Positions 947 through 49,595 of a stretch of 64,000 bases of DNA are shown in pieces. Position numbers and translations under genes: made by a program. Location: the NCBI GenBank assembly GCA_964016885.1, contig OZ024743.1, positions 72,354,001 to 72,418,000 of the forward strand, read 5' to 3'. The notes under the pieces were generated by a model that saw only the letters and a program-made list of their open reading frames with translations, did not search any database and was not told the origin of the DNA. Each line of letters begins with the position of its first letter. The first letter of the stretch is position 1. The stretch comes from Eledone cirrhosa (lineage: Eukaryota).

Positions 947-1008
<62 letters not shown>
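947..1008. repeat. (AAT)n tract, left boundary of the retrotransposon nest
   Basis: Perfect trinucleotide run. Confidence 0.98.
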
Positions 1009-1010
<2 letters not shown>

Positions 1011-1258
1011 TTTCTTTATTAACCACAAAGGTTTACATAAAGTAGACATTAAGGACAGTGCAGGACAATACAGGACGGTACAAATGGGCATTTCTGCGTG
1101 TAAAAAACAAAAACAGAGGATGTAACAAAAAATAACAATGAAAAATTCCCCAATATGGGGGAGACTTCGGAGGGACATTTGTGGAGAAAGCCCAGTAAAA
1201 GGCCAAAATGACCCTGACCACCAAGGCAAGTGCCCTCTCCCAGTTTTCCACCTTTAAT

Positions 1259-4200
1259 TTACAGATATATACTCAGAGTAGGCCCATTCACTCGAGCCAT
1301 TCTTGCTTCTCTCACCCATCTTTCAACAAAATGCTGGGAAGAGAGCACTTCCCTCTCTACTCTGATTTTCCTTTTCAAATGAAATTTGAAAAAGTCAATC
1401 AGAGCATCACCGAAGAGGTAAGTGCTCGTCTTCAGCCCTTTCAAACGTGTCCACCATACTATATCTTTCGCCATGGCCACAAGACAGATAAAAACTGCCT
1501 GCCCTTCCTGGCTAAAGGAGGAGGGCGGGGCAATCCTCACGATGGACTCAGATGATAGCCGGATCCGTCCTAAACGCGACAGCAGGTGTTCGACATAAAC
1601 CCACAAGTCAGGAATTTTCGGACACTGCAAGAGTGCGTGCAGGACGGTTTCGTCGCCCTGCGCGCTTCTCGGACATGCCCGGCTGACGGCACCTCCTAGA
1701 GTTTATCCCGAACTGGCAAGGCTCCTCGGTAGCACTGCCAGGCCAGAGATTTCTGGAAGTTGTCCATAGGCCTTGGCCCGAAAGTTCTTCCGAAGAGATT
1801 GGCTAGTTGATTTTCGTCAACGCCTAGATTTTCCCCAAGTATGGCGTTGCACTTCCCCTCCACTAATCCTCTATAGAACGCCGAGGTGGAGTTTCCACCG
1901 ATCACATTGCCCGATTGGTCGAGGGCTGTGAGCGCCTGAAGACATTCCAGTCTTCAGGCGCTCCCTCTCGGTCTTCGCTTGACCCAGGACTGCAGCTCCG
2001 TCAAGGAAACGAGCTGGGGAAATACGTGTCTAGCAAACGGCGACCACACCTGATCACCGTCGAGGAAGAGGTGGAGATGTCGTAGCCTCAGCGCGTGCTT
2101 GCGCATCATCAGCCACGGCATGCCCAGCCCTTCACGTAGCGGGTGTTGGCAACAGATGGACCGCCTGACAATCGGAGCGCGTCCCTTCCACAAAAAGCGA
2201 AAGATCAAACGCTCCAGCGCAGTCAGGCGAGGCTTAGGACAAGGTACGACGGTCAGGCGGTAGCAGATGACAGACGCGATGTACGCGTTAGCCACCTCCG
2301 CTCGACTTTCAGGGATAGCTTCCTCCCCGCCCATTTCTGGGTGAGAGAAGCCACCCTGCTCGTTACCTCGTCCCAGTTTTTGTCCGTCTGGAGGTCCGGA
2401 CCTAACCAGACCCCTAGCAATTTCACCGGTCCGTTCGTCCAGCGTCCGACGACGCTGTTGGACGGCATGGACCTGCTTCTCCAGGTGCCGAGCTGCAGGC
2501 CCACTGACTTTTCCTGGTTGATCATTGCTCCTGTCACCGCTTCGTATTCTCTTAGTGTAGTGCCGATCGCCTCGATGTGTTTGGCGTTCAACACCACTAC
2601 GGTGACATCGTCCGCATATGCTGACACGGATCTTCCGCATCTTAGTTCGCCCGGGACGCCTCTCAATGTCTCCAGTTTGTGCAGTAATGGCTCGAGGGTC
2701 AATACGTACAAGAGGGACGAGAGGGGACATCCTTGGCTGACCGAGCGCATGATGTTGAACGGTTCCGAAAGGTGATCGTTCACTCTCACCACAGAGAAGA
2801 TGTCGCTGTGCATAGCAGCGATCCACCCTCTGAGGATGGGTCCAAAGCCAGCCGCCCTCAGGACTGCCGCTAGGTAACGATGGTCGACCCTATCGAAAGC
2901 TTTAGACTGATCTAAATTGATCAAGAACCCACCCGTGCCAGGTTACCTAGCTACCCAATCTACGATGTATCGCATGAGCTGGAGGTTGTCGTGGATGAAT
3001 CTGTCGGGAATGGCGCATGTCTGCGCCTCTCCCACCAGACCACCAACGACAAGCGCCAACCTCTTTGCTAGCACCTTGGCCAAAATCTTGAACTCTGTGT
3101 TTAGCAGTGTTATGGGCCTGAAATTATCTATGTTATCCCCCTTGTTCGGATCCTTTCTCAGCAGTGCCACCGCTCCTCGGCTCACAGAACTGGGAATTCT
3201 CCCGTTCTGTTGCCAGTTGCAGTAGACGTCCGCCAAGAGGCCTCCGAACAAGTCTGGCATCTGTACGTAAAGTTCATAGGGCAGACCATCCAAACCAGGC
3301 GATTTACCCCTTGTGCAGCCAGTCATTGCCTCCATTACTTCAGCAGCTGTTATCGGCTTTTCGCAACACTTCGCCTCAGTGGCCGAGAACCGCGGCAGTC
3401 CGTCGAGGTAGACACTAAAGTCCATCCCTCGACCCGGCCCACCGATTCCCCCGAACAGCTGAGCGAAGTGTCGCTGAAAAGCTTCACACATTTGCCCGGG
3501 ATCGAGTAGCATGCGCCCGTCGTGGTCCACCAAAGACCGGATCGTGGCTTTGTTTCCACGACTCACCTCCGCCACTCGGGCCCATTGAACGGCTTTCGTC
3601 CCCTCGTGTCTGAGAGCACGCACCCTTGCTCTGACAACGCAGCCTTCGTGCTTTGCATTGAAGAATTGGTCAAGGGCCAATTTCGCCGCAAGCACGTCGG
3701 TCGCAATGCCTTTGCTAAGCGCCTCGTCTAATTTTCTAACTAGTTCTCCCTCTGCTCTATTTTTCTCTATTGCTAAAGCCTTACTAAACCTAATGGATTC
3801 TATTCTAATCGCTCTTTTCAGAGCAAACCACCACTTGTTGTTGACGATGGTCCCCGTCAACGCCCGCTTAACTAGTTCGCTAATCCGGTCTCTGTAGGCC
3901 TTGCGCGCTGGTAAGGATGCGTTTAGCTTCCAGTAGCCGGGTCCTCGTCTATGAAGCCTATCTAAGTCAAGCACACAGATCACGAATTTGTGGTCCCTGT
4001 AGCTGACTATCTTGAATTGTGGACAGCCTATGCTAGACCTATCTATTTCCCTACAAAATACTCTATGTAGATATGATCTGGATGACCCAATGCGATTTGT
4101 GCAAGTCCACATTGGCACATTCGGGAAATCCAATCGGTACCTTTCAGACAGTTCAAAACGCCTGAGCAGATTGGTGAGGCTCTTGCACCCTCCACCCCTA

Positions 4201-4668
4201 TCCGCTAATCCCACACAGTCCCAGCGTGCATCTAAGATCCCGTTCCATTCGCCCACTAACACTAAAGAGCGGGACGTTCCAAGAAAGGTCTCCAGACGCC
4301 GGAAGAAATCAGGCCGCCCTGCTCCTGTCGGGGCATAGACGGCCACTAGCCTGAAAGCTTGCCCGTCTCCGCTGGTCACGTCCAGCACCAACAACTTACC
4401 CTCTGGGTCCAGGAAGAAGGCCCGTATGGCGAGATCCAAATCTCTCCGAAAAAGCACAGCAACTCCTCCCCCCGATCCAGGACGGCTGGGAGATGCGTAC
4501 ACATCGTAGCCGCCAAAGATCGGTGCGAAGGCCCGTGCTTCGGAGATTCTGGTCTCGCTGATGGCCACTACATCTGTTTAGTGACCTGAGGTCGTTGAGC
4601 AAGTGACCCTGCTTCCATGACAACCCCAAGCCACGCGCTTTTATGCTGCCTATTCTGAGTGAGGTCAT
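1259..4668 (-). pseudogene. Tx1-A ORF2: apurinic-like endonuclease + reverse transcriptase, disrupted
   Basis: Starts MTSLRIGSIKARGL. APE motifs AISETR, VYAP, GEWNG, DHK. RT motifs KSPGLDG, FRPITLLN, LDQSKAFDRVDH, QGCPLS, YADD. C-terminal C..ETVLHALLQCP. Frameshift near 4575, stop at 2943-2945, further frameshifts downstream. Confidence 0.92.
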
Positions 4669-4689
4669 GTTTAAAATAGAGTGGAAAAG

Positions 4690-6811
4690 ATGGGAAAGAC
4701 CACTTACCGTACTTTTCGTAGAGGAGGGATGGTTTTTACATCCCTTTTCACTTAATCGTCTGGTGAAGGGACCGTTGAATCGTCCCTTCGGCTGGCCATC
4801 GGCTCTTCTATGAGTATGTCCGAATATACTCTTCGGTTGATAGTTCCTCCTAGGTCTCTGAAATCACCAACTGCGTTGGGGAATTTCGTTTTAATGTTTG
4901 TGTATTGTTTCTGTGCTATTTTTACCAGTCTTATGTTAGTTGGCGTTTTGATTGGTGCTGGTATTATGTAGTCGTGTTGTGAAATGTCTGTGTGTTCAAT
5001 TATGTAAGTCCTTAGTTTCTTGTTGTGTGTATTTATTGCCGTGCATTTGTTTTTCTGGGGGTAGGGTGTGGTTCTGCTATTTTCTTGTCGTTTTTGCTGG
5101 GTGTGTGTGTTTTGTTGTTGTGTTTCCGATGTTGGTGCTTGTGGTGGTGGTGTTGAAGGTGTTGTTGTTGTTGGCGGTGGGGTTGTCGCCGATGGTGATG
5201 GTGGTGCTAGTGTGGGTGGTGATGGTGTTGGTGGTGTTGCTGCTGTGAGTCTCTTTGCAGTAGACTTTACCCTTTTTTCATTTCTTTACTCCCTTTTCAA
5301 AGGCGACGATGCGCTGCTTCTGCGTTTGTGCCTTCTTACAACCTTTTGCCATCCCTCTCCCACCTCACACTCCATGTATGATTCTGTGAGGTCGGGGAGG
5401 GGTACCAGCTCCACTCTTTCACATGTTGTTGTTGGTGATGTTTGCACTGGAGTCTCTGTTGCAGCTGCATTTGGTATTGCTGTTGTTGTTGTTGTTAATA
5501 CTTCCACTGCTGCTGCTGTTTTTGATTTCCGTGGCGTGGGTATGGGTGCCACGGACCTATCGTTCCTGGTTGGCGCTTGTCCTGTTGCTGGTAGCCGTGG
5601 AGCCGGTTTCGGAAGGAGGGGGGTTTTCTCCTTTCTCAGGGTCTTCTCGTTGCAGAAGGCCCTGAGGTGAGTCTTCGATCCACAGCGAAAGCATTTCGGG
5701 CGTTTGCCCTCAATACTTATGGGCAGTTGAGTGCCGTTATCGAAGTCTATCACATCCGGGATAGCTTCGATGCACTCCTGGTTGGTTTGGATTAACATCT
5801 CAATAGAGGTGCCGACCCAATCTTCTCTTACTTTTTTCTGTACTTGCAGTACAGTTGTTTTGTCCTCGATTCCGACGAGGACAGACGCGGCCAGCCAAGA
5901 AGGGGCCATCCCGGGGTGGACGTGGGTCAGTTTGACCCTCACAATTTTTTGCCCGCAGTAGGAGGGCACCAACACCATTTCCTCGCTCCTTAGGGTCACT
6001 ACGGATTGAGCCTTTGCCTCCTGGGGTGTGGCAAAAAGTACGTCTACGGTGGCATATTTCTTGCCTCGGGTGATGTGTGTTTTCCGCTGCCACACAGACA
6101 CCAAGGCTTTTTGTATTTGAGCCTCTGTGGCACTTTCCACCCTACGGGATTTTGTACTTACTGTACGGTACGTGACCGTACAGTGCTGTTGGGTTTTGAA
6201 AAAATTTTCCGCTGCCTTGCAGATTGCTCGGTGTCCGGTTTTTGTCACCATCTTCTTCGCTTCCTCTAATTCCTAATTTGTTATGAGGATTGTTTCCAGG
6301 TTCTTCGCGATACCTGCAAACAAGATTGTTTTTTTTGCTGCTGTTGTTGTTGTTGTTGTTGACGTCAGAGCTGCTGTTACTTTTGTTGTTGCTGCAGGTA
6401 CTACGACTACTGCCGCTGTTGCTGTGGTTGTTGTTGTTGTTGCTGCAGCTAATGCTGTTGTTGTTTATGCTGCTGCTGATGCTGTTGCGGCTGCTACTGT
6501 TGTTTTCATTGTCACTGTTCCTGTTGTTACTATGGCTGCTACTGCTATTATTCCTGACGTCAGACGAATGAAATGGGTTTTCGTATTTCCCGCACACCTG
6601 TTTCGTCGTCGTTGTCGTCGTGGAGAAATCTTGCACGCTTTGCACGAGACTTTTCTTTTCTGTCGTCGCTTGTGGAAAGAGAAAGGAGGGAGAGAGACAC
6701 ATTTAAAGAAGGGAGGGAGAGAGACAATCTTCTCTCTGCTGTAGTGACGATTGAGGAAGAAGAAGCCGGAATGAGTGGGAGTGACCTATGAAAATTATTT
6801 TTCGTAGCCAT
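4690..6811 (-). pseudogene. Tx1-A ORF1 (gag-like nucleic-acid-binding protein), disrupted
   Basis: Core ORF 5286-6251 contains the CX2CX4HX4C knuckle CFRCGSKTHLRAFC and Thr/Ala-rich low-complexity flanks, and is homologous to ORF1 of copy E. Ends are approximate. Confidence 0.75.
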
Positions 6812-7029
6812 GTTGTTTTTTTTTTGTTTAAAATAAATATTGGGCACAAAACCCCAATAAGCAGTTATTTAACCCCGAAGGGCCAAATAACGGGCAGAAA
6901 GACACCTCTCTCTCGAGGAGGGTGTTTTTTGTCTACAAGTTGGTAAAAGTTTTAAACAATTTACAATTGTTATAGCGTTCAAAATTTACAATACCTTACA
7001 TAGCCGAGCCTCCGTCAACCATAGCATTC

Positions 7030-7067
<38 letters not shown>

Positions 7068-7077
7068 TAATAATAAC
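7030..7077. repeat. (AAT)n spacer between Tx1-A 5' end and Dong-B
   Basis: Trinucleotide run with one AAC variant. Confidence 0.95.
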
Positions 7078-10000
7078 TAGACAATATACGAAGAAATATT
7101 GTAAGAAAAAAGTTACTAACTGATATAGAAATTGATCAGATCAAGCTATTAGCACAAAGTCAGCGAAGGGAAAATGAAACATGTGTCAGTGAAAACGAGG
7201 TAAATTGTAACACTTCGAATCCCAGGGTTGGGGCGGAATCACTGGCAACAGAACAAATTAAAGAATGGATCGAAAAAGTGGAGGGAATGCATGCTCAAAA
7301 TGAAACTCCAAATGAAAATAATGAGATCGTAAATGATAAAGAAATGAATGATAATGAATTTGCCAACTTGAAGGAGGAAATTATGATCGAATGGATGAAA
7401 ATGAAAGAATCTGACATGGGGCAACGAGACACCCTCCCTAAGATCCAGAACTCCAAACAGAACCAAAAGATAATACACAAGACTAACATAATTCTCAAAA
7501 ACATTATCATCACAAACAAACTAAACATTTCTGATTTAAATCATCTCTATTATGCATCGGCTAAAGTCACCACTCACTTATGTGGAGTGAAGATGAAAAA
7601 ACAAAGGAATTCCCACAAGAAATCTACTTGGCAAGAGAACATCAATCGCCAAATAAACCTTCTCCAAACTGACATAGAAATTTTAACAAACTATAAAGTA
7701 GGTGAACATGTTAAACAAACTAAACTTAGAAAATTGAAAAAAAGTACAGTATAAAATCAACAAGTGACATAGACATGCTGATAGAAATAATCAAGCAAAA
7801 AGTGTCGGCCAAAGCTGCTCGTATAAGGCGCTTTGAAAAACGATCTAGATTCTATAAGGACAATAATATGTTCAAAACCAACCAAAGAAACTTCTACTGT
7901 AAAATTGGTTAGTCAACAATAACTGCTAAATCAATACCACCCAAGGAGGAAGTGCAAGAATTCTGGGAAAAGATCTGGGCCGAAGAAAAAGTTCATAACA
8001 TACATGCCCCATGGATAGACAGACAAATGAAAGATACAGCTCACCTTGAGGAACAAATATGGGAAAATATAACAGTTGAACAGTTGCGCTTGGCTCTAAG
8101 AAAAACCAGCAAATGGAAATCCCCAGGAAAAGACAAAATACAAAATTTTTGGATAAATGCCTTCACAGTCTCATGAGCTGTTAGCCCAACTTTACAATGA
8201 AATAGTTAAGGAGCCAGAAAAGATACCATCATGGCTAGTTAACGGCATTACATTCCTGCTTCCGAAGAATGATGAGACAAACAATCCCAAAAATTACAGA
8301 CCGATAACTTGCTTGACCACAATGTATAAAATGTTAACATCAGTCCTAACTGAATACACGTATGACCACCTGATAACAAATGACCTATTTCCCATTGAGC
8401 AGAAAGGGTGTAAACAAGGCTCATATGGCTGTAAGGATCAGCTTTTGGTTAACAAAATGATACTGGATGATTGTCATAATAGACACAAAAATCTATCGAT
8501 TGCTTGGATAGATTATAAAAAAGAATTCGATAGTTTGCCACACAGTTGGATTGAAAAATGTTTAGAGATTTTCAAAATATCCCCCGTTGTCAGGAGGTTT
8601 TTGTCATTCAGTATGAAGACATGGAAAACGACACTCCTTCTGAATAGTGAAACAAAATCACTGGAAGCTGGAGAAGTTAATATTAATTGTGGAATTTTTC
8701 AGGGTGACTCTTTATCACCGCTTTTATTCTGCATCGCACTTATACCATTAAGTAAAATGCTCAATGAAACAAAACATGGATATAAAGTCTATGACAAAAC
8801 CATTAATCACTTGTTCTACATGGATGACCTGAAACTATTTGCAAAAAATGATGAACAATTGCAAGGGCTATTATCAACTGTGGAGCAGTTCAGTGATGGC
8901 ATTAAAATGGAGTTTGGACTAGACAAATGCGCCAAAGCAACGTTCACCAGAGGAAAGCTGCTGAAGAGTTCAGACATTAATCTTGATCGGGGGAACGTGA
9001 TAAGAGAATTTGATCAAGAAAAAACTTACAAATATCTAGGTGTTTCTGAAGGAGACGGAATCAAGCACTCGACAATCTTAAGAACGGAATTGAATGCAAG
9101 GAATAGGATCGATGCCATAAACACGCTTGCCATACCAATAGTAACCTACAGTTACAATGTCATCAACTGGTCAAGCACAGAGATCCGTAGGCTCGATACA
9201 AAAATTCGAAAATTCTTAACCATGCACAGAATTCATCACCCTAAGGCAGATATAGATAGAATATATCTCCCTAGGAAAGAAGGAGGACGTGGGTTAATCC
9301 AGTTAGACATTGCCTTGAAAACTGCAACAATTGGATTATCTACATATCTAAGGGAATCACATGATTGGATGATCAAACTCGTTTTGAAACACGAAAGCAT
9401 CAAAAGATCATATTCCATTACAAAAGATGCGCAAAGATACAGTAATGGACTACAAATTTCAGAAGTCCCATTTACTGCTGAAATGGAAAACACAGAAAAA
9501 GCAAAGCAGGTAAAAGTAACTGCAAAGAAAGAACTGCTACAGAAACTGGCTAAGAAATGGCAAGAAAAGCCTCTGTATGGAAAATACCCAGAGCGAGCTA
9601 ACAATCCTGATGTTGACAAAACTTTAATTCATCAGTGGTTGGCATCCTCTGGACTGAAATCGGAGACTGAAGGACTGATTATATCAGCACAAGATCAGTG
9701 TCTGCCAACAAAAAATTACCAAGCCAACATAATAAAAGATGGATGCAGCCCATTATGCCGTGTATGCAAAAAACAACCAGAGACCATTGACCATATAATT
9801 TCAATGTGCAGTCCTATAGCTACCACCGAATACCTAAACAGGCATGACAGAGCTGCACAATACATACATTGGATAATGTGTAAGCATTTTGACCTGCCCC
9901 ATCAAAAGAATTGGTGGGAGCATCAACCACCTCCTATACTTGACAAAGATCACATCTCAATCTTGTGGAACTTTAGTATCCAAACAGACCGAAAAATAGA

Positions 10001-10466
10001 TGCAAATAGACCTGATATAATATTGAAGGACTTTAAAAAGAGGGTATGCCTGCTAATTGATATGTCTGTTCCAATAGACAAGAATGTATCTATAAAAACA
10101 TTTGAAAAATTGAGCAAGTATAAGGACCTGGAGATAGAAATTGGAAAAATGTGGAAATTGAGAACTAAAACAATACCAGTGGTTGTAGGCGCTCTGGGAA
10201 TGATACATAAGGGGTCTAATGATTACTTATCGCAAATCCCAGGAAACCCGCGTATAGGAGAAATAAAAAAGATAGTACTAATGGGAACTGCCCATATACT
10301 AAGGAAGATTCTGTCAATATAAGTACATCACAAGTGTAAACACTAAAGATGCATGTGTGAGTATGTATGTTCTTTCTTGAACATGGCGGACCTTGTTGTC
10401 TCTTGAGGTCACTGGTTGTGACTTGGTGATAACTCGCATGAACATAAAACAAGATAAATGCAACTG
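7078..10466 (+). mobile_element. R4/Dong-clade RLE non-LTR retrotransposon, family B, 5'-truncated
   Basis: Begins mid-ORF directly after (AAT)n. RT, CCHC and PD-(D/E)xK nuclease domains, a short 3' UTR and a (TAA)n tail at 10467-10487. Confidence 0.9.
7080..10322 (+). pseudogene. Dong-B RT-RLE polyprotein, frameshifted
   Basis: KSPGKD, YRPITCL, GIFQGDSLSPLLF, YMDDLKL, CRVC..ETIDHIISMC, RHD, NRPDI..D..K..KY.DL. Frameshifts near 7745 and 8165. Apparent in-frame deletion of ~15 aa near 9070 relative to family C. Confidence 0.88.
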
Positions 10467-10483
10467 TAATAATAATAATAATA

Positions 10484-12608
10484 ATAACATCCCTCCACCC
10501 GAAACTGACAACCATGTTCAATAACTGCTTGATGTCAGGTGAGGTACCAGAGTGGTTGACAAAAGGTACCACAGTTCTGATAATGAAAGACCGAATCAAG
10601 GGTAATGTTGTTACCAACTATAGACCTATCACATGTCTGTCCGTAATGTGGAAACTGTTGACAAGCATTATGTCTGAGGAAATCTACCATCACCTCCACA
10701 CAAACAACTCGTTACCGGACGAACAGAAAGGATGCCGAAAGAAGTCACGTGGTACAGAGGACCAGTTACTTATTGATAAGAAGGTAATGAGGAATTGCAA
10801 GAGGAGACACACTTGTCTTACCATGGGATGGATAGACTACAAACAGGCATTTGACATGGTGCCTCATTCTTGGATCACCAAAAGCCTGGAGATCTTCAAG
10901 GTGGCAGATATCATAAGACAGTTGTTGGGCAAAAGTATGAAGACCTGGGAAACAGAGTTAACATCAACTGGAGAATCCTTGGGAAGCGTGAAGATCAAGA
11001 GAGGTATCTTCCAGGGAGATAGTCTGTCCCCTCTGTTGTTTGTCCTTGCCCTGATGCCCCTGACCAGTTTACTGCGAAAAGTGAGAGCAGGATACAGGTT
11101 GGGAAAGGGAGAGCTTACCATCAATCACCTCCACTTCATGGACGATCTTAAGCTCTTCGGGAGAAGTGAGAAGGAGTTGGATGTGCTTGTTGACACTGTC
11201 GGTATTTTCAGCAATGATATATGTATGCAATTCAGTATTAGTAAGTGTGGAGTCATTGTGATGAAGAGGGGTAAATTGAGCAGAAGTAACGGAATCCGGG
11301 TAGCAACAGGTGAGATGATAAAGGAAATTGACTCTGAAGAAGGATACAAGTATTTGGGCGTTCTGGAGTCTGATGACATCAAGAACAAAAAAATGAAGGA
11401 ATTGATAAGAACTGAATACATTCGGAGAGTAAGGAGCGTATTAAAGTCACATCTGAACAGTAGGGATGCCATAAGTGCAGTAAATTCCCGAGCTGTGTCT
11501 ATTATTAGGTACAGTGCGGGAATTCTGAGATGGAATGTTGCTGAACAAAAAGAAATGGATAGGAAGACCAGGAAGCTATTGACTATCTACAACATGTTCC
11601 ACAAGATGTCGATAGACTCTAGTTAAGGAGATCTGAAGGTGGAAGAGATGTTATCAGCATAGAGGACTGTGTTCAGATGGAGAAAAACAACCTACACAAA
11701 TACGTGACTGATAGTAAGGAGCCAATGCTGAGAACTGTACTGAAGGAGGGGACAATAGGCCAGGGATGTCCAAGGAGGAAATAACATCAAGGAGAAAGAG
11801 CAGCCTTCAGGAAAAATCCCTTCATAGTACCTTCTTTGAGAAAACTGAATTTAGAGATCCACAGACATGGAACTGGTTGAAAAGAGGAGACCTTAAAAAG
11901 GCTACAGAAGGAATGTTAATGGCTGCGCAGGAGCAGGCCCTCAAAACGAAGTGGTTGAAATACCATATTTACAAGGAGGAGACTAGCCCACTGTGCAGGA
12001 TCTGTGGAGAGAGAGAGGAGACTGTGGCTCACATTGTATCCGAGTGTAAACACCTAGCCCAGACTCACTATAAGGGTTGGAGACATGATGTGATGGGCAG
12101 GGTGATCCACTGGCACCTATGCAAAGTAAACAATTTACCACATTCTGAGAAGTGGTATGAGCATAAGCCAGAGTCGGTGATAGAAAACGATCAGGTGAAG
12201 GTGCTGTGGGATTTTAGGATAAGGTGCTGTGGGATTTTAAAGAAAAAATATCGTGCCTGATTGTGGATGTGGCCTGCCCATTCGACACGAGAGTGCAAGA
12301 GAAGGAGAGTGAGAAAATTAACCGATACCAGGACTTAAAGTGTGAGGTAAAAAGGATTTGGAATTGCCATGAAGTCAAAGTGATCCCGATTGTCATAGGC
12401 GCACTAGGGACTATCTCAAAAAGTTTCCAGGCATGGTTAAAGAAAACTGGCCCCTTCACGCTTTTTGGAACGCTTAAAAAGGCATGCTTGCTGGGAATAG
12501 TAAAAACCCTCTGATACGTCCTGAATATCTGAGTCTGCAGGTAGTGGCTTGCTATTCATTTCAACAAACTTTCCAGTTAACTAACATAAATGACTGAGAC
12601 TCAAAGAG
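10484..12608 (+). mobile_element. Dong family C, copy C1, 5'-truncated and defective
   Basis: Roughly 90% identical by eye to 27215-29379. Frameshift and TAG near 11605-11622. The RPD catalytic segment is replaced by a short duplication near 12200-12240. (AAC/AAT)n tail at 12609-12648. Confidence 0.93.
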
Positions 12609-12648
12609 TAATAACAACAACAATAATAATAATAATAATAATAATAAT

Positions 12649-13995: not shown

Positions 13996-14039
13996 AGAAG
14001 ATACGCACATGGTGGATAGGGTATTATGGAATCGCTCCC

Positions 14040-14986: not shown

Positions 14987-15111
14987 CGTGATGGTGCCAC
15001 GCTAAAATCACCGGGGGTGATGAAATCACCGTTAGTTATGTAACCATACATTCACCAATCCTCGATATGAGTGCTTAAGTGTCGAACCTAAACAGTTCGA
15101 ATAACGGTGAA

Positions 15112-18463: not shown

Positions 18464-18823
18464 GGCTGCAGGTAGTGGCTTGATATTTATTTCAACTAAC
18501 TTTCCAGTTAACCAGCATCAATGAGTGAGACTCAAAGAACAATAATAATAATAATAATAATAATTATAATTATGCTTTCTTTATTAACCACAAAGGTTTA
18601 ATAAAGTAGACATTAAGAACAGTACGGGACAATACAGGACGGTACAAATGGGCATTTCTGCGTGTAAAAAACAAAAACAGAGGATGTAACAAAAAATTAA
18701 CAATGAAAAATTCCCCAATAGGGGGGAGACTTCCGAGGAACATTTGTGGAAAAAGCCCATTAAAAGACCACAGTGACCTTGACCACCAGGGCAAGTGTCC
18801 TCTCCCAGTTTTCCACCTTTAAT

Positions 18824-21800
18824 TTATAGACACATACTCAGAGAAAGCCCATTCACTCGGGCGATACTTGCTTCTCTCACCCATCTTGCAACAAAATGTT
18901 GGGAAGAGAGCACTTCCCTCTCTACCCTGATTTTCTTTTCAAATGAAATTTGAAAAAGTCAATCAGGGCATCACCGAAGAGGTAAGTGCTCGTCTTCAGC
19001 CCTTTCAAACGTGTCCACCATACTATATCTTTCGCCATGGCCACCAGACAGATAAAAACTGCCTGTCCTTCCCGGCTAAAGTAAGATGGCGGGACAATCG
19101 TCACGATGGACTCAGCTGATAGCTGGATCCGTCCTACACGCAACAACAGGTGTTCGATATAAACCCACAAGTCAGCAATGCTCGGACACTGGACGAGTGC
19201 ATGAAGGACGGTTTCGTCGCCCTGTGCGCATCTCGGACATGACCGGCTGACGGCACCTCCATGCCTGTAGGGTTTATCCCGAACTGGCAAAGCTCCTTGG
19301 TAGCACTGCCAGGCCACGGATTTCTGGAAGTTGTCCCTAGGCCCCGGCCCGAAAGTTCTTCCGAAGAGATTGGCTAGTTGATTTTCGTCGACGCCTAGAA
19401 TTTCTTCAAGTATGTCGTCGCTCTTCCCCTCCACTAATTCTCTATAGAACGCCAAGGTGGAGTTTCCACCTATTACATTGCCCGATTGGTCGAAGGCTGC
19501 GAGCGCCTGAAGACATTTCAGTCTCCAAGCGCTAGTTCTCGGTCTTCGCTGGACCCTGGACTGCAGCTCCGTCAAGGAGACGAGCTGGGGTATGACGCGT
19601 CTAGCAAACGGCGACCACACCTGATCACCGTGGAGGAAGAGGGGGAGATGTCGTAGCCTGAGCGCGTGTCTGCGTATCATCAGCCACGGCATGCCCAGCC
19701 CTCCACCTAGCGGTTTTGACAGCAGATGGACCACCTGACCATCGAGGCGCGTCCCTTCCACGAAATTGCAAACGCTCCAGCTCAGTCACGCGGGGCTTAG
19801 GACAAGGTACGACGGTCAGGCGGTAGCAGATGACGGACGCGATGTACGCGTTAGCCACCTCCGCACGACCTTTCATGGATAGCTTCCACTCCATCCATTT
19901 CTGGGTGAGAGAAGCCACCCTGCTCGTCACTTCGTCCCAGTTTTTGTCCGTCTGGAAGTCTGGACCGACCAGACCCCTAGCAATTTAACCGGTACGTCCG
20001 TCCAGCGCCCGACGACGCTGTTGGACGGCATGGACCTGTCTCTCCAGGTACTGAGCTGCAGGCCCACTGACTTTTCCTGGTTGATCATTGCTCCTGTCAC
20101 CGCTTCGTATTCTTTTCGTGTAATGCCGATCGCCTCGATGTATTTGGCGTTCGACACCACTACGGTGACATCGTCCGCATATAGTGACACGGATCTTTCG
20201 CATCCTAGTTCGCGCGGGATCCTCCTCAACGTCTCCAGTTTGTGCAGTAATGGCTCGAGAGTCAATATGTATAAGAGGGGCGAGAGGGGACATCCTTGGC
20301 GGACAGAGCGCATGATGTTGAACGGTTCCGAAAGGTGACCGTTCACTCTCACTACAGAGCAGATGACGGTGTGCATGGCAGCGATCCAGCCTCTGAAGAC
20401 AGGCCCAAAGCCAGCCGCCCTCAGAACGGCCGCTAGGAAACGATGGTCGACCCTATCGAAAGCTTTCGACTGATCTAAATTGATCAAGGACCCACCCGTG
20501 CCAGGTTCCCTAGCTACCCAATCTACGATGTATCGCATGAGCTGGAGGTTGTCGTGGATGAATCTGTCGGGAATGGCGCATGTCAGCGCCTCTCCCACCA
20601 GACCACCAGCGACAAGCGACAACCTCTTTGCTAGCACCTTGGCCAAAATCTTGAACTCTGTGTTTAGCAGAGTTATGGGCCTGAAATTATCTATGTTATC
20701 CCCATTGTTCGGATCCTTTCTCAGCAGCGCCACAGCTTCTCGGCTCACAGAGCTGGGAAATCTCCCGTTCTGTTGCCAGTTGCAGTAGACGTCCGCCAAG
20801 AGGTCTGCGAACAAGTCTGGCATCTGTACGTAAAGTTTATAAGGCAGACCACCAAACCAGGCGATTTACCCCTTGTGCAGCCAGTCATTGCCTCCCGTAC
20901 TTCAGCTGCTGTTACCGGCTTTGCGCAACACTCCGCCTCAGTGGCCGAGAGCCGTGTCAGTCGGTCTAGGTAAACACTAAAGTCCATCCCTCGAGCCGGT
21001 CCACCGCTGCCCACGAACAGCTGTGCGAAGTGTCGCTGAAAAGCTTCACACATTTGCCCGGGATCGAGTAGCATCCGCCCGTCGTGGTCCACCAAAGACC
21101 GTATCGTGGCTTTGTTACCACGACTCGCCTCAGCCAATCGGGCCCATTGAACGGCTTTCGTCCCCTCGTGTCTGAGAGCACGCACCCTAGCTCTGACAAG
21201 CAGCCTTCGTGCTTTCCATTGAAGAATTGGTCAAGGGCAAATTTCGCCGCCAGAACGTCGGTCGCGATGCCTTTGCTAAGCGCCTCGTCTAATTTTCTAA
21301 CTAGTTCTACCACTGCTCTATTTTTTCTCTATTGCTAAAGCCTTACTAAACCTAATGGACTCTATTCTAATCGCTCTTTTCAGAGCAAACGACCACTTGT
21401 TGCTGAAGATGGCCCCCGTCAACGCCCGCTTAACTATTTCGCTAATCTTGTCTGTGTAGGCTTATCGCGCTGGTAAGGACGCGTTTAGCTTCCAGTAGCC
21501 GGGTCCTCGTCTATGAAGCCTATCTAAGTCAAGGACACAGATCACGAATCTGTGGTCCGTGCAGCTAACTATCTTGAATTGTGGACAGCCTATGGTAGAC
21601 CTACCTATTTCCCTACAAAATACTCTATCTAGATATGATCTTGATGACCCTATGAGATTTGTCCAAGTCCACATTGGCACATTCGGGAAATCCAATCGGT
21701 ACCTGTCAGACAATTCAAAACGCCTGAGCAGGTTGGTGAGGCTCTTGTACCCTCCTCCCTTATCTGCTAATCCCACACAGTCCCAGCGTGCATCTAAGAT

Positions 21801-22209
21801 CCCGTTCCAGTCGCCCACAAACACTAAAGAGCGGACGTTCTAAGAAAGCTCCCCAGACGCTGGAAGAAATCAGGCTGCACTGCTCCTGTCGGAGCATAGA
21901 CGCCCACTAGCCTATAAGCTTGCCCGTCTCCGCTGGTTACGTCCAGCACCACCAACTTACTTTCTGGGTCCAGGAAGATGGCCCGTATGGCGCAATCCAA
22001 ACCTCTCCGTAAAAGCACAGCAATTTCTCCCCCCGATCCAGGACGGCTGGGAGATGCGTACATATCGTAGCCGCCGAAGATCGGTGCGAAGGCCCGTGCT
22101 TCGGAGATTCTGGTCTCGCTGATTGCCACTATATCTATGTTTAGTGACCTGAGGTCCATGACAACCCCAAGCCACGCGTATTTATGCTGCCTATTATGAG
22201 TGAGGTCAT
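18824..22209 (-). pseudogene. Tx1-E ORF2 (APE + RT), disrupted
   Basis: DIVAISETR, GDWNG, SYLDRV, TDHR, LDQSKAFDRVDH, VRQGCPLSPLLY, YADD, CPRC..ETVLHALVQC. Several frameshifts. Confidence 0.9.
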
Positions 22210-22248
22210 GTTGAAATGGAGAGGAAAAGATGGTAAAGACCACTTACC

Positions 22249-24138
22249 TTACTTCTCGTAGAGGAATGATTGTTTCTCCATCCTTTTCACTGCTTGTGGC
22301 CTCCTCCTGGAGAGTGCCTGTCGGAATTCTCCGATGTCCTTGGGGAATTTTTGTTTTAGTGTCGTGTACGTTTTCTCTGTGATGCGAGTGATTTTTATGT
22401 GTGGAGGCATGTGAACTTTTGGTTTGTTGTGTAGTCTTTTTCTGTGATGCTGTTGTTGTGTTGGGCGTAGTGTAATAATTGGTTGTTGTTCAAATTTAAT
22501 GCTGTGTAGTGTGTATCGTTTTGGTTGTTTTGTTTTGTTTGCGTTTGTTTTAGGTTTGTTTCTGTTTCGCTTTTTGGTGACTTTTGGGGTGTTGGTGATG
22601 GTGGTGTTGGGGTCAATGATGGTGATGGTGTTGGTGTTTGTGGTCATGGGGTTGGTGATGCTGGTGTGGATGGTGGCATATCTGTCCTAACTTTTTTGTT
22701 TGATAGTATATTTGTTTCTCTCTGTATTTTGCTTTTGGAGGGGGAAGGAAGAGGACTTTTTCTCTTTTGGTTTCTTTTTCTTTTAATCTTTTTTCCTGGT
22801 ACCGTTTCCCACTCCTCGTCGTCAAAATCTGTCTTGCGATAGATCGGGGAGTAGAAAATCCTCCACAGGCGCTGGTTATGGTTGTGCTGTGGTGGATGGT
22901 GTAGGCGCTGGTGCTAGTTCTGGCGCGTTGGGTGGTGGTGGTGTTGGTTTTGCTACTGTTGCTGGGATTGTTGCTGTTACAGTTGCTACTGTTGTTGCTG
23001 CTACATTTGTTGCTGCTATTTCAGCTGCTGGTGGTGTTGATGGCTGATTCACTGGGGTGGGTAAGAGAGGTGGCCTCAACCTTTTAGCCTGAGGGCAGAA
23101 AACCCTTAGGTGGGTTCCTTCACCACAAACGACAATTACGGTGAGGTGGCTGCCATCAGTGAGGTCTATTACCTCTGGGATCTCCTCAATGCTTTTTTGG
23201 TCCGCTTGGATCAGGAGCTCCATCCCAGATCCGGACCAGTTATCCTGCTTTTATTTCGCTATTTCGATTATCTTGGTGTTGGCTTCGATGCCGGCGAGGA
23301 CGGTAGCCATTAGCCAGGGAATTTCGATGGCCGGTGGAACGTGGGTCACTCTGATCTTCACTAGTCTCTGGCCACAATAGCTTGGGACGAGTGTGAAGTC
23401 ATCACTTCTTAATGGGGCCATGGAGTGTTCTCTGGCCTCCTGTGGTGTTTCAAAGAACATGTCCCCGGTTCCATATTTCTGCCCACGTCTGATGTGGCGT
23501 TTTTTGCCCACACATGTCCCAAAGCTTTTTTGGATTTAGCACTCGGATGCCCGTTCCACTCGGTGCGATTTTATGTTAATCGTCCGATAAGACACGGTGC
23601 ATAGGCGCCGATGCTCCATTTTATTAGGTGTGTGGGGGGGGGGGGGGCTGGACCTGTACCCATCTTTCTTTACCATTCTTTTGGCTTCATCTAATTCCTC
23701 CCTAGTTAATTGGAATGCTTCGCACATTTTTGCTACTCTGGCAAAAGCCGGTAGTTTTTTTATTTCATTGTTGCTGTTGTTGTTATCGTTATTTTTGTTA
23801 TTGTTAATTTTAGTTTCAGTTGTGGTGGTGGTGGTGACGTCAGTGGTGTTCTGTGTGGAAGAGTTCATTTTGGGTGAATTCTTTTCGATATCACGAGATA
23901 ATTTATATTTTTCTTTTGTCTCTGTTGTCGCTGTGGTGGTGGTGGCGGCTTCAACACCTGCAGTCATTGGTAATGGCGGGAAACGAATGTCTGCCTGAGA
24001 CAAATTTAAAATATTGCTACTGCTTATATTTTTAGTGTTGGCAAACGTAGTACTATTTACAATGGTGGTGTCGGTGTGAGGTGTTAGTTTGTGAGGAAGG
24101 TGTGACCCTGAGTCGTCCATGATTTTTTCAAAGAACAT
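22249..24138 (-). pseudogene. Tx1-E ORF1, disrupted
   Basis: CTVSYRT..KS.RVE.A, TPQEA, LVPSYCGQ, and partial knuckle CGEGTHLRVFC, homologous to A ORF1. Confidence 0.75.
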
Positions 24139-24335
24139 TTTTTTATTTGATAATTATATAAGTTTAAATTTTGGGCTCAAGGCCCCAATCTTTTTAAGTG
24201 TGCTTTTCAGATAATAATGTATGTGCACTTATATACAGTTAACAATAAGAAATTCCATAAATGGCAATTTTAAACAACTGAAAATAACAAACCTTTGCGC
24301 ATCTCACGATAATACGATTTACTACGTAGGTCGCC

Positions 24336-24409
<74 letters not shown>

Positions 24410-24461
24410 GAATAATAACAATTATAATTATAATAATAACAATCATAATTATAATAATAAT

Positions 24462-24517
<56 letters not shown>
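24336..24517. repeat. Long imperfect (AAT)n tract between the 5' ends of Tx1-E and Dong-C3
   Basis: Direct observation. Confidence 0.97.
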
Positions 24518-24561
24518 GGGAAGAAGACGCACGAGGTGACGGAGGTCATGAAATAGCTCCC

Positions 24562-25784
24562 GTAAGTTTTGAATTTTTAACATATTTAAATCATTTGTGA
24601 AATAACAACTCTTAGTACAAATGCTACGTAAAGCACCCGGCTTGAGCCCCAAAAAATTCGGACCCAAAATATATTGTTATAAGGCTCAAATATTCAAATA
24701 TTCAACTTTGTATTGTACACTGTATATCCAAAAAAAAATGGCTATAAATGGAAGAAGAAGAACCCCCCCCCCCCCTCCTCTCCTCTGGCTACACTATATA
24801 GGACAGCTAAACTCACCAACACCAGAAACTAGATACACTACCCACCCCATCATCTGTGTACACTAAACACAACAGCATTTTCACCTTCACCGCCACCGCT
24901 CACTACGGCCATCATTACCACCACTATCCCATCACCGCCGCCACCACCCCTTGACTCCTTCACTGCTGCTGCCACCGCTACAGCACCATCACTACAGTAA
25001 TACGGCTCAAATATTCAAATATTCAACTTTGTATTGTACACTGTATATCCCAAAAAAAATAAAATGGCTATAAATGGAAGAAGAAGAACCCCCCCCCCCC
25101 CCCCTCCTCTCCTCTGGCTACACTATATAGGACAGCTAAACTCACCAACACCAGAAACTAGATACACCACCCACCCCATCATCTGTGTACACTAAACACA
25201 ACAGCATTTTCACCTTCACCGCCACCGCTCACTACGGCCATCATTACCACCACTATCCCATCACCGCCGCCACCACCCCTTGACTCCTTCACTGCTGCTG
25301 CCACCGCTACAGCACCATCACTACAGTAATACGGTCGCATCACCGCCACCACTGCCTCGGTATCGACATCACCACCACCACTGTCTCAGTATCGCCAACG
25401 CCGCCATTCTCTGCTGGCTGCCACTTCCACATTATAGAATTCCTACTACTAACAAAGAGGAAGGCATCAAAATATATAGATAGACTCAAAAGAAAAAAGA
25501 AAAAACAAACAACAAAACCAAAGCAGCACAGCAACAACAGCAAAAAACGAGAAAAACAAACAGAGAAAAACAAAAACAAAAAAAGAAACCCCCAAAACGT
25601 AAAGAAAATAAGAATGAAGAGAGAAGCAGGCGGACGGACAGAGAAGAGGGGGGAAAAAGTAAAACTTAAAAAACAAAAACTAAGTCAGACATTCGAATAC
25701 TACATTACAATGAAACTTATGCTTATTCATTTTTGGGGCCCTTTCTGTCCGTGTGTTTGTTTGTTTATGTGTGTCCGTATACAG
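24562..25784 (+). other. Candidate GT-AG intron in Dong-C3 5' UTR
   Basis: Consensus donor CC|GTAAGT at 24562. U-rich tract and ATACAG|CGTG acceptor ending 25784. Confidence 0.45.
24683..25332. repeat. Tandem duplication (~321 + ~329 bp) inside the C3 5' UTR
   Basis: GGCTCAAATATTCAAATATTC starts at 24683 and again at 25004. Copies differ mainly in homopolymer lengths. Confidence 0.95.
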
Positions 25785-25912
25785 CGTGGTGATAATGCCA
25801 CACAAGGGCCAAGTGGGATGGCGGATCCACAGATGGCTATGTAAACATACATTCGCCAATCCTCGATAAGAGTGTTTAAATATCGAACATAAACAGTTCG
25901 AATAACGGTGAA

Positions 25913-28900
25913 ATGGAGACTAGAACGTCATGTGACAGACTCTCACCCAACAGGTGCCCCCTGGCTCAGCAGCAGGAACCTGACTGTCAACCAAATACTG
26001 CTGATGTTGGAGGAAGAAGAAGAAGGAAAGGGGCCAGAACCAACTGGACGAAAGAATTGAATAGAACTGTTATGCAATGCTACCTGAAAAGTAACCCCAA
26101 GGAGAGGGGCTACAGGAGACGGATGCATAACATCTGGAACGAGATTGGTTTATTTAAATTAGATGAACAAAAATTGGCCGGGCAGGCTCGGGTAATAAGA
26201 ACTAATGGGTGGATAAGCGAGCTGGAACTGGAGGAACTGAGCAGAGAGAATGGCTTGGAGATGGCGGGTGTAGTATGCCAGACAAGCGAGCCGGCGGGAA
26301 ATGAAGGTGAGGAGGTCCTGAGAACGGAGGAACCACCCGAAGCAGACAATGATCTGAATACTGAGATAAATAATACCTGGAACAGAGATACGGCCACTGA
26401 GGAGATGAATGCTGACGGGCTAGGACAAGATTCGGTTGACATCCTAAATTTAGTGGTAGATGAGTTGAACAATGATAGTGGGAGACCTATGAACCTAAGA
26501 TTTGTAGACAGGAAAAAGTTAAAAGAAACAACAGCTAAGGTAAACAAAGTCATCCCATACCTTGAGGCGAGGAGTCTTCACCAGTGCAACAATATCCTCA
26601 AAGCAACAGCAAATACGGTGAGGAAACTACTTGGTATAAAAGCGAGAGGAAACAACAGACAAGAAAGAGCAGAGCCGTGGTGGAAGAAGCGACTGAGTGG
26701 GCAAATCGGGGAAATGAGAAATGACATAGGAAAGCTTGAGTCACTACTGAATGGGACACTAAAAAACATAGGCACTAAAAATAGACTGGAAATAAAATAC
26801 AAAACTAGGAGTAAAAAGCTAAATATTATCATAGAGGAATTGAAGCAACGCATTGTAGCAAAGAGTGCCAAAATCAGGCGATACGAGAACAGAGTCAGTC
26901 AGTATAAACAGAACCGCATGTTCGACAACAACCAGAAGATGCTGTTTGGCCAGCTTGAGGGGAAAGAAAGAGGCAACGACTTGATCCCTGGGGCGGAACA
27001 AGCTAAAACATTCTGGAGAGGAATATGGGAGCAGGATGTTAGACACAATGCCCAGGCAGGGTGGATTGAGACAGTACAGAGGGAGATCGGTGAGCAGGCA
27101 CAACAACAGACTGATTTGAGTATCACAGTTGAAACTCTTAAGGGGCAAGCCAAAAAACTAACCAACTGGAAATCACCAGGCCCAGATGGTGTGCAGGGGT
27201 ATTGGATTAAACATTTAACATCCCTCCACCCGAAGCTGACGGCCATGTTCAATGACTGCTTGGTGTCGGGTGAGGTGCCAGAGTGGTTGACAAAAGGTAC
27301 CACAGTTCTGATAATGAAAGACCGAATCAAGGGTAATGATGTTACCAACTATAGACCTATCACATGTCTGCCCGTAATGTGGAAACTGTTGACGAGCATT
27401 GTGTCTGAGGAAATCTACCATCACCTCCACACAAACAACTTGTTACCGGACGAACAGAAAGGATGCCGAAAGAAGTCACGTGGTACAAAGGACCAGTTGC
27501 TTATTGATAAGATGGTAATGGGGAATTGCAGGAGGAGACACACTGATCTTGCCATGGGATGGATAGACTACAGAAAGGCATTTGACATGGTGCCTCATTC
27601 CTGGATCACCAAAAGCCTGGAGATCTTCAGGGTGGCAGATAACATCAGACAGTTGCTGGGCAGGAGTATGGGGTCCTGGGAGACAGAGTTGACATCAACT
27701 GGAGTATCCTTGGGAAGCGTGAAGATCAAGAGAGGTATCTTCCAGGGAGATAGCCTGTCCCCTCTGTTGTTTGTCCTTGCCCTGATGCCCTTGACCATTA
27801 TGCTGCGAAAAGTGAGAGCAGGATACAAGTTGGGAAGGGGAGAGCTTACCATCAATCACCTCCTCTTCATGGACGATCTTAAGCTCTTCGGGAAAAGTGA
27901 GAAGGAGTTGGATGTGCTTGTTGACACTGTCCGTATTTTCAGCAGTGATATATGTATGCAGTTTGGTATTGGTAAATGTGGAGTCATTGTGATGAGGAGG
28001 GGTAGGTTGAGCAGAAGTAACGGGATCCAGATACCAACAGGTGAGATGATAAAGGAAATTGACTCTGAGGAAGAATACAAGTATTTGGGCGTTCTGGAGG
28101 CTGATGGCATAAAGAACAAAAAAATGAAGGAATTGTTAAGAAATGAATACATTCGGAGAGTAAGGAGCGTATTGAAGTCACATCTGAACAGCAGAAATGC
28201 CATAAGCGCAGTAAATTCCCGAGCTGTGTCTATTATTAGGTACAGTGCGGGAATTCTGAGATGGAATGTTGCTGAACAAAAAGAAATGGATAGGAAGACT
28301 AGGAAGCTATTGACTATCTACAACATGTTCCACAAGAGGAGTGATGTCGATAGACTCTACCTAAGGAGATCTGAGGGTGGAAGAGGTCTTATCAGCATAG
28401 AGGACTGTGTTCAGATGGAGAAAAACAACCTATACAAATACGTGACCTATAGTAAGGAGCCAATGCTCAGAGCTGTACGGAAGGAGGGGACAGTAGGCCA
28501 GGGGATATCCAAGGAGGAAATAACATCAAGGAGGAAGAGCAGCCTTAAGGGAAAATCCCTTTATAGTACCTTCTTTGAGAAAACTGAATTTAGAGATCCA
28601 CAGACATGGAACTGGTTGAGAAGAGGAGACCTCAAAAAGGCTACAGAAGGAATGCTAATGGCTGCGCAGGAGCAGGCCCTCAAAACGAAGTGGTTGAAGC
28701 ACCATATCTACAAGGAGGAGGCTAGCCCACTGTGCAGGATCTGTGGAGAGAGAGAGGAGACTGTGGCTCACATTGTGTCCGAGTGTAAACACCTAGCCCA
28801 GACCCACTATAAGGGCTGGAGACACGATGTGATGGGCAGGGTGATCCACTGGCACCTGTGCAAAGTAAACAATCTACCACATTCTGAGAAATGGTATGAG

Positions 28901-29305
28901 CATAGGCCAGAGGCGGTGATGGAGAACAGTCAGGTGAAGGTGCTGTGGGATTTTAGGATACAGACGGACAAAAAACTGGAACACAATAGACCTGACCTGG
29001 TGGTTGTGGACAAAGAAAAAAGATCGTGCCTGATTGTGGATGTGGCCTGCCCGTTCGACACGAGAGTGCAAGAGAAGGAGAGGGAGAAAATTAACAGATA
29101 CCAGGACCTAAAGTGGGAGGTGAAAAGGATTTGGAACTGCCATGAAGTCAAAGTGATCCCGATTGTCATAGGCGCACTGGGGACTATCTCCAAAGGTTTC
29201 CAGGGATGGTTAAAGAAAATCGGCCCCTTCACGCTTTTTGGAACGCTTCAAAAGGCATGCTTGCTTGGAACGGCAAGAACCCTCCGATACGTCCTGAATA
29301 TCTGA
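25913..29305 (+). CDS. R4/Dong-type polyprotein: reverse transcriptase + CCHC zinc finger + restriction-like endonuclease (1130 aa)
   Basis: Uninterrupted ORF with WKSPGPDG, YRPITCL, GIFQGDSLSPLLF, FMDDLKL, YKYLG, CRICGEREETVAHIVSEC, RHD, NRPDLV..IVDVACP..EKINRYQDL. Confidence 0.95.
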   Translation: METRTSCDRLSPNRCPLAQQQEPDCQPNTADVGGRRRRKGARTNWTKELNRTVMQCYLKSNPKERGYRRRMHNIWNEIGLFKLDEQKLAGQARVIRTNGWISELELEELSRENGLEMAGVVCQTSEPAGNEGEEVLRTEEPPEADNDLNTEINNTWNRDTATEEMNADGLGQDSVDILNLVVDELNNDSGRPMNLRFVDRKKLKETTAKVNKVIPYLEARSLHQCNNILKATANTVRKLLGIKARGNNRQERAEPWWKKRLSGQIGEMRNDIGKLESLLNGTLKNIGTKNRLEIKYKTRSKKLNIIIEELKQRIVAKSAKIRRYENRVSQYKQNRMFDNNQKMLFGQLEGKERGNDLIPGAEQAKTFWRGIWEQDVRHNAQAGWIETVQREIGEQAQQQTDLSITVETLKGQAKKLTNWKSPGPDGVQGYWIKHLTSLHPKLTAMFNDCLVSGEVPEWLTKGTTVLIMKDRIKGNDVTNYRPITCLPVMWKLLTSIVSEEIYHHLHTNNLLPDEQKGCRKKSRGTKDQLLIDKMVMGNCRRRHTDLAMGWIDYRKAFDMVPHSWITKSLEIFRVADNIRQLLGRSMGSWETELTSTGVSLGSVKIKRGIFQGDSLSPLLFVLALMPLTIMLRKVRAGYKLGRGELTINHLLFMDDLKLFGKSEKELDVLVDTVRIFSSDICMQFGIGKCGVIVMRRGRLSRSNGIQIPTGEMIKEIDSEEEYKYLGVLEADGIKNKKMKELLRNEYIRRVRSVLKSHLNSRNAISAVNSRAVSIIRYSAGILRWNVAEQKEMDRKTRKLLTIYNMFHKRSDVDRLYLRRSEGGRGLISIEDCVQMEKNNLYKYVTYSKEPMLRAVRKEGTVGQGISKEEITSRRKSSLKGKSLYSTFFEKTEFRDPQTWNWLRRGDLKKATEGMLMAAQEQALKTKWLKHHIYKEEASPLCRICGEREETVAHIVSECKHLAQTHYKGWRHDVMGRVIHWHLCKVNNLPHSEKWYEHRPEAVMENSQVKVLWDFRIQTDKKLEHNRPDLVVVDKEKRSCLIVDVACPFDTRVQEKEREKINRYQDLKWEVKRIWNCHEVKVIPIVIGALGTISKGFQGWLKKIGPFTLFGTLQKACLLGTARTLRYVLNI

Positions 29306-29385
29306 GGCTGCAGGTAGTGGCTTGATATTCAATCCAACGGACTTTCCAGTTAACCAACATCAATGACTGAGATTCAAGGAATAAC

Positions 29386-29418
<33 letters not shown>

Positions 29419-48457: not shown

Positions 48458-48535
<78 letters not shown>

Positions 48536-48541
48536 CATATT

Positions 48542-49098: not shown

Positions 49099-49159
<61 letters not shown>

Positions 49160-49555: not shown

Positions 49556-49595
<40 letters not shown>

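Follow-up and report, generated by a model that had tools for sequence, protein, structure and literature searches.

We analysed a 64,000-nucleotide stretch of the Eledone cirrhosa genome (assembly GCA_964016885.1, contig OZ024743.1, positions 72,354,001 to 72,418,000 of the forward strand), hereafter the window, in which seven long interspersed nuclear element (LINE) copies from four families lie end to end between positions 947 and 29414. Open reading frame (ORF) and Pfam scans, self-BLAST and tblastn bear out the order, strands and coordinates proposed in an initial annotation of this sequence: A(-), B(+), C1(+), D(-), C2(+), E(-), C3(+). The minus strand carries three LINEs of the L1/Tx1 group (A, D and E) and the plus strand four Dong-like LINEs of the R2 group (B and C1 to C3). 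None of the element bodies is interrupted by another member of the array, as had been claimed, and (AAT)n tracts of a single polarity occupy five of the six internal junctions as well as both outer ends; the one exception, also anticipated, is a direct join between D and C2 at 13995/13996 without AAT. The count of seven LINEs was right for the array itself but overlooked an eighth, degraded RTE-like remnant directly left of the first tract.

Element A (1009-7029, minus strand) is a full-length L1/Tx1-group LINE according to Pfam and tblastn, with a 5′ untranslated region (UTR) starting at 7029, ORF1 starting at 6811, ORF2 at 4668-1259, and a 3′ end of AATAAA followed by (ATT)n. Its ORF2, interrupted by several stops and frameshifts, encodes an apurinic/apyrimidinic-type endonuclease (APE), a reverse transcriptase (RT) and a C-terminal Cys motif. 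Element E (18571-24335, minus strand), delimited by self-BLAST, is likewise full-length, and both are two-ORF elements with a separate ORF1 upstream of ORF2. The two are 91% alike in ORF2 and the 3′ UTR, compared with about 65-74% in aligned columns of the 5′ UTR and ORF1; this 5′ divergence (4750-7029 versus 22290-24335) resembles the 5′ module swaps of mammalian L1. Element D (12649-13995, minus strand) is a 5′-truncated copy of a separate family (dS 0.73 to A/E), which retains only the C-terminal part without any APE domain and is assigned to the group by its 74% DNA identity to A/E.

The L1/Tx1 elements match the Pfam families Exo_endo_phos, RVT_1 and zf-RVT, and a profile built from A and 19 relatives recovers human L1 ORF2p at 4e-110 versus R2 at 1e-37; by sequence, A, D and E are members of the L1 group. 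Within it they likely represent the Tx1 clade rather than another L1-group clade. The Tx1 label fits because ORF1 of A contains a CCHC knuckle (CX2CX4HX4C, 5652-5693; degenerate in E), a feature of Tx1-clade type I ORF1 (PMC5203782), and because some relatives are flanked by U2 small nuclear RNA (snRNA). In a quick tree of 45 rows, A and E form their own well-supported branch (starred) inside a group (SH-aLRT 86) of unsettled internal order that also holds the U2-flanked loci L003 and L005; unnamed relatives stand at 36-42% identity. This tree was built without Kibi, Koshi and Tx1L references, and four of the 31 picked proteins, including the only TX1-named one, were left out as too short. A Pfam scan found no RNA recognition motif in ORF1, and a single-sequence search of the A/E APE against solved structures gave no match. 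The distant L1/Tx1-like elements at L003 (4675-4885), L005 (5815-5977), L009 (9202-9356) and L008 (4285) are flanked 3′ by U2 snRNA (Keno-like), U1 snRNA and an (AT)27 run.

On the plus strand, B (7077-10466) encodes an RT, a CCHC motif (9756) and RPD..D (10008); its 5′ end is truncated within the ORF, exactly at the tract, and it shares about 40% protein identity with C3. Family C consists of C1 (10488-12608), a 5′-truncated copy found by self-BLAST and tblastn, the near full-length C2 (body 14869-18537), with seven stops and eight indels relative to C3, and C3 itself (body 25671-29379), whose unbroken ORF of 1130 amino acids runs from an ATG at 25913 to 29305 and includes RT, CCHC (28733) and RPD..D (28988). 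B and C each have a single ORF in which the RT is followed by CCHC and a PD..D nuclease, without APE. Their best relatives among solved structures are R2 proteins (3.7e-30), with L1 next at 5.6e-14, and the stretch of the restriction-like endonuclease (RLE) is aligned; B and C1 to C3 are thereby assigned to the R2 group. The Dong label comes from (TAA)n flanks in sense orientation, found at all four 3′ ends and three of four 5′ ends, and otherwise from motifs that we take to be Dong-type; there was no named Dong or R4 sequence among 120 listed homologues or in Atlas. At the 5′ end, a search for a hepatitis delta virus (HDV)-like ribozyme returned no Rfam ribozyme match and no hits with a crude descriptor. 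Ahead of the Dong-C ORF lies a conserved, structured stretch (14985-15125 and 25780-25920; z -2.7 in C3, -1.4 in C2), which combines a hairpin, a loop-like UCCUCG motif and a helix that one-sided changes have preserved, and which is no canonical HDV-like ribozyme.

C2 and C3 are preceded by plus-strand, low-complexity leaders of 0.9-1.15 kb, X2 (13996-14868), joined to D without AAT, and X3 (24518-25670), which starts (TAA)n|G and contains a 329-bp tandem duplication (24679-25334). The leaders are collinear and about 70% alike in their first 400 nt, versus about 90% in the ORF (dS 0.20); each has an ATG at about 220-235 nt, counted from the 5′ end, after which comes low-complexity sequence rich in Thr and Pro, as in A and E. 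X2 also includes a short AAT-like run (14585-14602). In our reading, family C has a variable 5′ leader, represented by X2 and X3. We rejected an origin of X2 as a twin-priming inversion of D, since X3 is the same kind of leader, joined to family C in the same way, with no truncated Tx1 element beside it. The leaders show a weak likeness to the heads of A and E (z 2.5-4.5 relative to some 480 real control stretches, z 1.8-6.0 relative to shuffles), and it is possible that they were captured from a Tx1 element. That X is a plus-strand Tx1 derivative, which would break the polarity of the array, we consider doubtful, because the tblastx matches listed include none between X and A/E, the heads of A and E score only z 1.0 against each other in the same control-stretch test, and X3 begins in the Dong-like phase, (TAA)n|G.

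AAT tracts in the window are confined to the ends of these elements. There are eight AAT/ATA/TAA runs of at least five units in the 64 kb, all within 947-29412 and corresponding to seven tracts, since 24336-24517 is counted twice. ATT-strand runs of at least five units are absent from the entire window, and the sole four-unit ATT run lies at 35576. The array opens with (AAT)20 at 947-1008, the tail or target of A and possibly also the seed tract. Two tracts are head-to-head, (AAT)16 at 7030-7076 and an interrupted (AAT)∼60 at 24336-24517, and two tail-to-tail, (AAT/AAC)13 at 12609-12648 and (AAT)∼10 at 18538-18570. (TAA)7 at 10467-10487 represents the tail of B and the 5′ flank of C1, and (AAT)∼12 at 29380-29414 is the tail of C3 and the right end of the array. 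C1 is truncated within its ORF exactly at its tract, which shares a 5-nt microhomology, ATAAC, with the C sequence at the truncation point; microhomology is typical of LINE 5′ truncations.

All four RLE copies end 3′ in TAA-sense repeats and all three L1/Tx1 copies in ATT-sense repeats. The “strict opposite polarity” of the initial annotation thus describes each of the seven copies correctly but amounts to two family-level facts, not seven. Seven independent copy-level coin tosses would give this pattern with a chance of 1/128; polarity is, however, a property of the family, with two to four draws instead of seven, and one draw per family puts the chance at 1/16 (1/8 for either assignment), a modest statistic. 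The confinement of all AAT tracts to element ends is a stronger sign than the polarity statistic.

Whether a tract served as target or was brought in as a tail depends on the type of junction. Tail-to-tail tracts prove little, because either neighbour could have supplied them. In contrast, the tracts at 7030-7076 and 24336-24517 are likely target DNA, because each lies between two 5′ ends and is neither element's tail. Within the window, L1/Tx1 copies are flanked by AAT at three of three 3′ ends and two of three 5′ ends. A and E both begin ATT|G despite their very different 5′ UTRs, and the three Tx1 3′ ends all join the tract in the same phase; these junctions would fit a nick at AAT/AAT on the AAT strand. 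On the Dong side, C3 starts in the (TAA)n|G phase of the Bombyx mori Dong primer (PMC3774820).

Reads from four of 13 runs, including an independent 2026 sample of restriction-site-associated DNA sequencing (RAD-seq), were mapped to 12450-24350 (11.9 of the 28.5 kb), and all element families proved to be highly multicopy. In the RAD-seq sample, 134 reads link an E-family sequence that breaks off at 21070 to a C-family sequence that breaks off at 18385, with TC and about nine AAT units in between. They describe a head-to-head Tx1(-)|AAT|Dong(+) joint of the same 5′ phase, with both ends truncated, at a locus outside the window. This joint is the only row with an AAT run among the 12 listed of 500 rows of letters between matches, and none of these 12 contains an ATT run. 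No reads at element ends are among the listed 15 of 1952 joints, 12 of 500 rows of intervening letters or 24 of 9386 loose ends. A further 76,808 reads start 126 nt before the Dong-C 3′ end, and on average at most 148 of their 150 nt fit (an upper bound), which is compatible with TAA-sense tails on most Dong-C copies. Contig depth over X2 is 30-100 times below that of the C body in run X4. At the AATT site 14074, 79 nt into X2, 6,649 RAD molecules end (13797-14074), compared with about 120-380 reads for single-locus joints, and X2-like heads therefore recur beside an SphI-bearing neighbour.

These data bear on two rival explanations. In the first, Tx1-like copies would insert broadly and supply nothing but (TTA)n tails, which Dong elements then fill, and the head-to-head tracts would reflect repeats transcribed along with the elements or simple coincidence in DNA rich in repeats. 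Both tail-to-tail joints would indeed require no more than the known Dong target, and D has no 5′ tract. However, a separate accident would be needed for each head-to-head tract (three, one of them at a 5′-truncated Tx1 end), and the remaining 34.5 kb of the window are devoid of AAT tracts; we regard this explanation as quite unlikely. In the second, which we judge very unlikely, part of the array is an artefact in which the assembly fused separate loci at (AAT)n tracts. The multicopy nature of all families, the lack of a spanning record in the mapped runs and other near-perfect inverted duplications in the window would be in keeping with such a join. On the other hand, the window contains no N, five of the seven tracts are 21-47 bp long, several tracts carry interruptions of different kinds, one join lacks AAT and another shows microhomology, and the same type of joint occurs in raw reads of another sample. 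Moreover, a false join would still require AAT at every element end in this polarity.

Comparison of the coding sequences addresses how the copies came to lie side by side. Ratios of dN/dS are 0.31-0.37 for C3 versus C1 and C2, 0.53 for C1 versus C2, 0.52-0.58 for A versus E and 0.24 for A versus D. Values of 0.24-0.58, which reflect purifying selection between copies, indicate that the copies come from replicating lineages, and point to separate insertions rather than a decayed local duplication. A Dong|Tx1 pair that was duplicated locally, in tandem or as a segment, and then decayed could explain why C|Tx1 tail-to-tail pairs recur and why C1 and C2 have a stop and a deletion boundary in common. 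Nevertheless, with dN/dS well below 1, A and E differing in ORF1 and 5′ UTR, and D and B derived from other families, such duplication is a highly improbable origin for the array. The defects shared by C1 and C2 point to local gene conversion or to a defective source copied in trans.

Taken together, we favor, with a probability of roughly 60%, a reading in which seven LINE copies of four families were stacked in one (AAT)n by separate insertions, the RLE elements priming on the (TTA)n strand and the APE elements on the (AAT)n strand. Both groups would use target-primed reverse transcription on (AAT)n. On the AAT strand, the Tx1-like APE would nick at AAT/AAT, which is a T-A step, the type of site that APEs cut (PMC1950540, PMC7265360). 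The free 3′ end could then pair with an AUU-type RNA end, and the new copy would come to lie, in its own sense, between (ATT)n tracts. The Dong RLE would nick the opposite strand, and its copies would acquire (TAA)n flanks. Each insertion would split the tract into two usable tracts, raising the number of targets by one, and later copies could therefore land between earlier ones, giving head-to-head, tail-to-tail and head-to-tail joints. Concerning the earlier proposal that the two groups use opposite strands of AAT, the parts that stand are AAT as target DNA of the Tx1-like elements, given the 5′ AAT at both full-length copies, the constant phase and the one read joint, and the independence of the insertions.

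A different division of labor between enzyme and RNA could lead to the same products. If the Tx1-like endonuclease were relaxed and cut at any T-A step, pairing of an (AUU)n RNA tail with the nicked AAT strand might select both site and strand, and there would be no true convergence of endonucleases. Pairing between RNA end and primer shapes the insertion of RTE and SART1 (PMC6007223, PMC7265360), and T-A steps are present on both strands of (AAT)n; the TTA strand is nearer to the L1 consensus TTTT/AA (PMC1950540), yet it is the other strand that is used. Against a relaxed endonuclease speak the constant phase of the junctions and the attribution of microsatellite-specific Tx1 families to endonuclease specificity (PMC4494074), and we think it unlikely. 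We are similarly skeptical of a much broader version of the strand model, in which APE and RLE families partition the (AAT)n strands and build self-propagating, alternating arrays at many loci, and Dong-C has captured a Tx1-type module of 5′ promoter and ORF1 start. If true, such a capture would mean that the two deepest LINE groups have exchanged a module.

Several observations weigh against the proposed stacking on opposite strands. Targeting by the Tx1-like elements is represented by three 5′ junctions (A, E and the read joint), and the 5′ end of D is without AAT. No record in the mapped runs spans the array. A TTA run near the end of ORF2 was found at none of 26 metagenome loci, all of them relatives too distant to tell much about flanks, whose best segments are mostly 25-42% identical and many of which end before the flanks; short TTA-type runs at L022 and L024-L026 lie at least 2.7 kb from the match. 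Viral contigs held no related loci. C1 and C2 have a TAC-to-TAG stop in common, and their deletions of 7 and 13 bp begin at the same left edge (11605-11622 and 17522-17533; C3 28336-28360), so these two copies are not fully independent. Finally, the RTE-like remnant adjoins the first tract in TAA polarity, and a sister copy of it at 52873-53220 ends in a GAA-rich tail. The earlier statement that all APE elements have ATT tails accordingly applies to the L1/Tx1 group (three of three) and not to this remnant.

The remnant itself (∼523-946, plus strand) is a degraded, older 3′ fragment with a stop codon just before the first tract. It derives from a LINE but has no relation to either the Dong or the L1/Tx1 set: tblastn with P0359 and P0356 gave E-values of 8e-20 and 1e-20, the phmmer matches are unnamed C-terminal LINE fragments, and the nearest Atlas family is DUF6451. 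A Pfam scan of 523-946 found nothing, and we presume an RTE origin from the C-terminal motifs, no named match being present. The first tract may conceivably descend from the tail of this remnant, a tentative idea to which we give the lesser chance; it is weakened by the GAA-rich tail of the sister copy and by the absence of a detected target duplication.

Outside the array, the window contains large inverted duplications or near-perfect palindromes of 78-100% identity (37234-39367/39954-42044, 59567-60633/61934-62986, 44687-45555, 55439-55658 and 43492-43820), which are either foldback elements or assembly artefacts. A tandem array with a unit of about 440-460 bp and 85-93% identity occupies 48399-51325 and has an inverted copy at its right end.

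If the preferred reading of stacked insertions on opposite strands is true, (TTA)n joins the known microsatellite targets of Tx1 families, (TC)n, (TTC)n, (TTCC)n and (TTTC)n (PMC4494074 section 15), a paper that calls a family microsatellite-specific when >20% of its flanks lie in the repeat. Two unrelated nuclease folds would then act on opposite strands of one 3-bp repeat, and the array makes it testable whether endonuclease or RNA tail picks the strand. With its unbroken ORF, C3 is a candidate from which to obtain a site-specific RLE enzyme. In octopus, Dong-R4 and L1-Tx1 are large LINE classes with recent activity (PMC13282606 Table 1), for which the available passages of that paper report no target preference; if this genome is of the same kind, as its AT-rich, microsatellite-dense sequence and its mix of Dong, Tx1 and RTE elements suggest, hotspots of repeats and breaks in assemblies could stem from microsatellite stacking.

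Each ingredient of the array has a precedent, and the combination of APE and RLE elements in one microsatellite, on opposite strands and in an uninterrupted stack, was not found in the literature searched. That literature included no Tx1 family in TTA or ATT repeats and no target common to Tx1 and Dong, although the search did not extend to Repbase, to papers behind subscription or to the flank figures in the supplement of PMC4494074, where such a family may already be listed. That Dong elements target (TAA)n, as the initial annotation held, is confirmed by PMC3812793 and PMC3774820. Like B and C, Dong of the R4 clade (Bombyx mori, Anopheles gambiae, Biomphalaria glabrata) has a single ORF with RT, CCHC and PD..D and sense (TAA)n on both sides. 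The elements described here differ in their 0.9-1.15 kb low-complexity leader, in the lack of a detected HDV-like ribozyme, whereas B. mori Dong has a self-cleaving one at its 5′ end (PMC3774820), and in the presence of two about 40%-alike families at one site; the likeness was drawn without direct sequence comparison to a named Dong. A and E share with Kibi, Koshi (targets, with those of Waldo and Mino, in PMC3812793) and crocodilian Tx1 an APE-RT ORF2 of about 1140 amino acids, an ORF1 CCHC knuckle and a T-rich microsatellite at both ends, a likeness by features and not by tree; their target unit, in contrast, is (TTA)n and is shared with an RLE element. SART1 and TRAS1 of Bombyx mori are likewise two LINE families inserted in opposite directions in one short tandem repeat (PMC7265360), but both are APE-type and the repeat is telomeric, whereas here APE and RLE elements meet in an interstitial microsatellite. 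Zepp-type and other nested L1/Tx1 stacks also form multi-kilobase piles of LINEs in alternating orientation; unlike the members of this array, these elements insert into each other's bodies. As in the array, R1 and R2 in 28S rDNA represent APE and RLE elements converging on one multicopy target. They lie in the same orientation, however, at separate sites within the gene, and while insertion of R1 or R2 destroys the site, insertion into the array would regenerate it.

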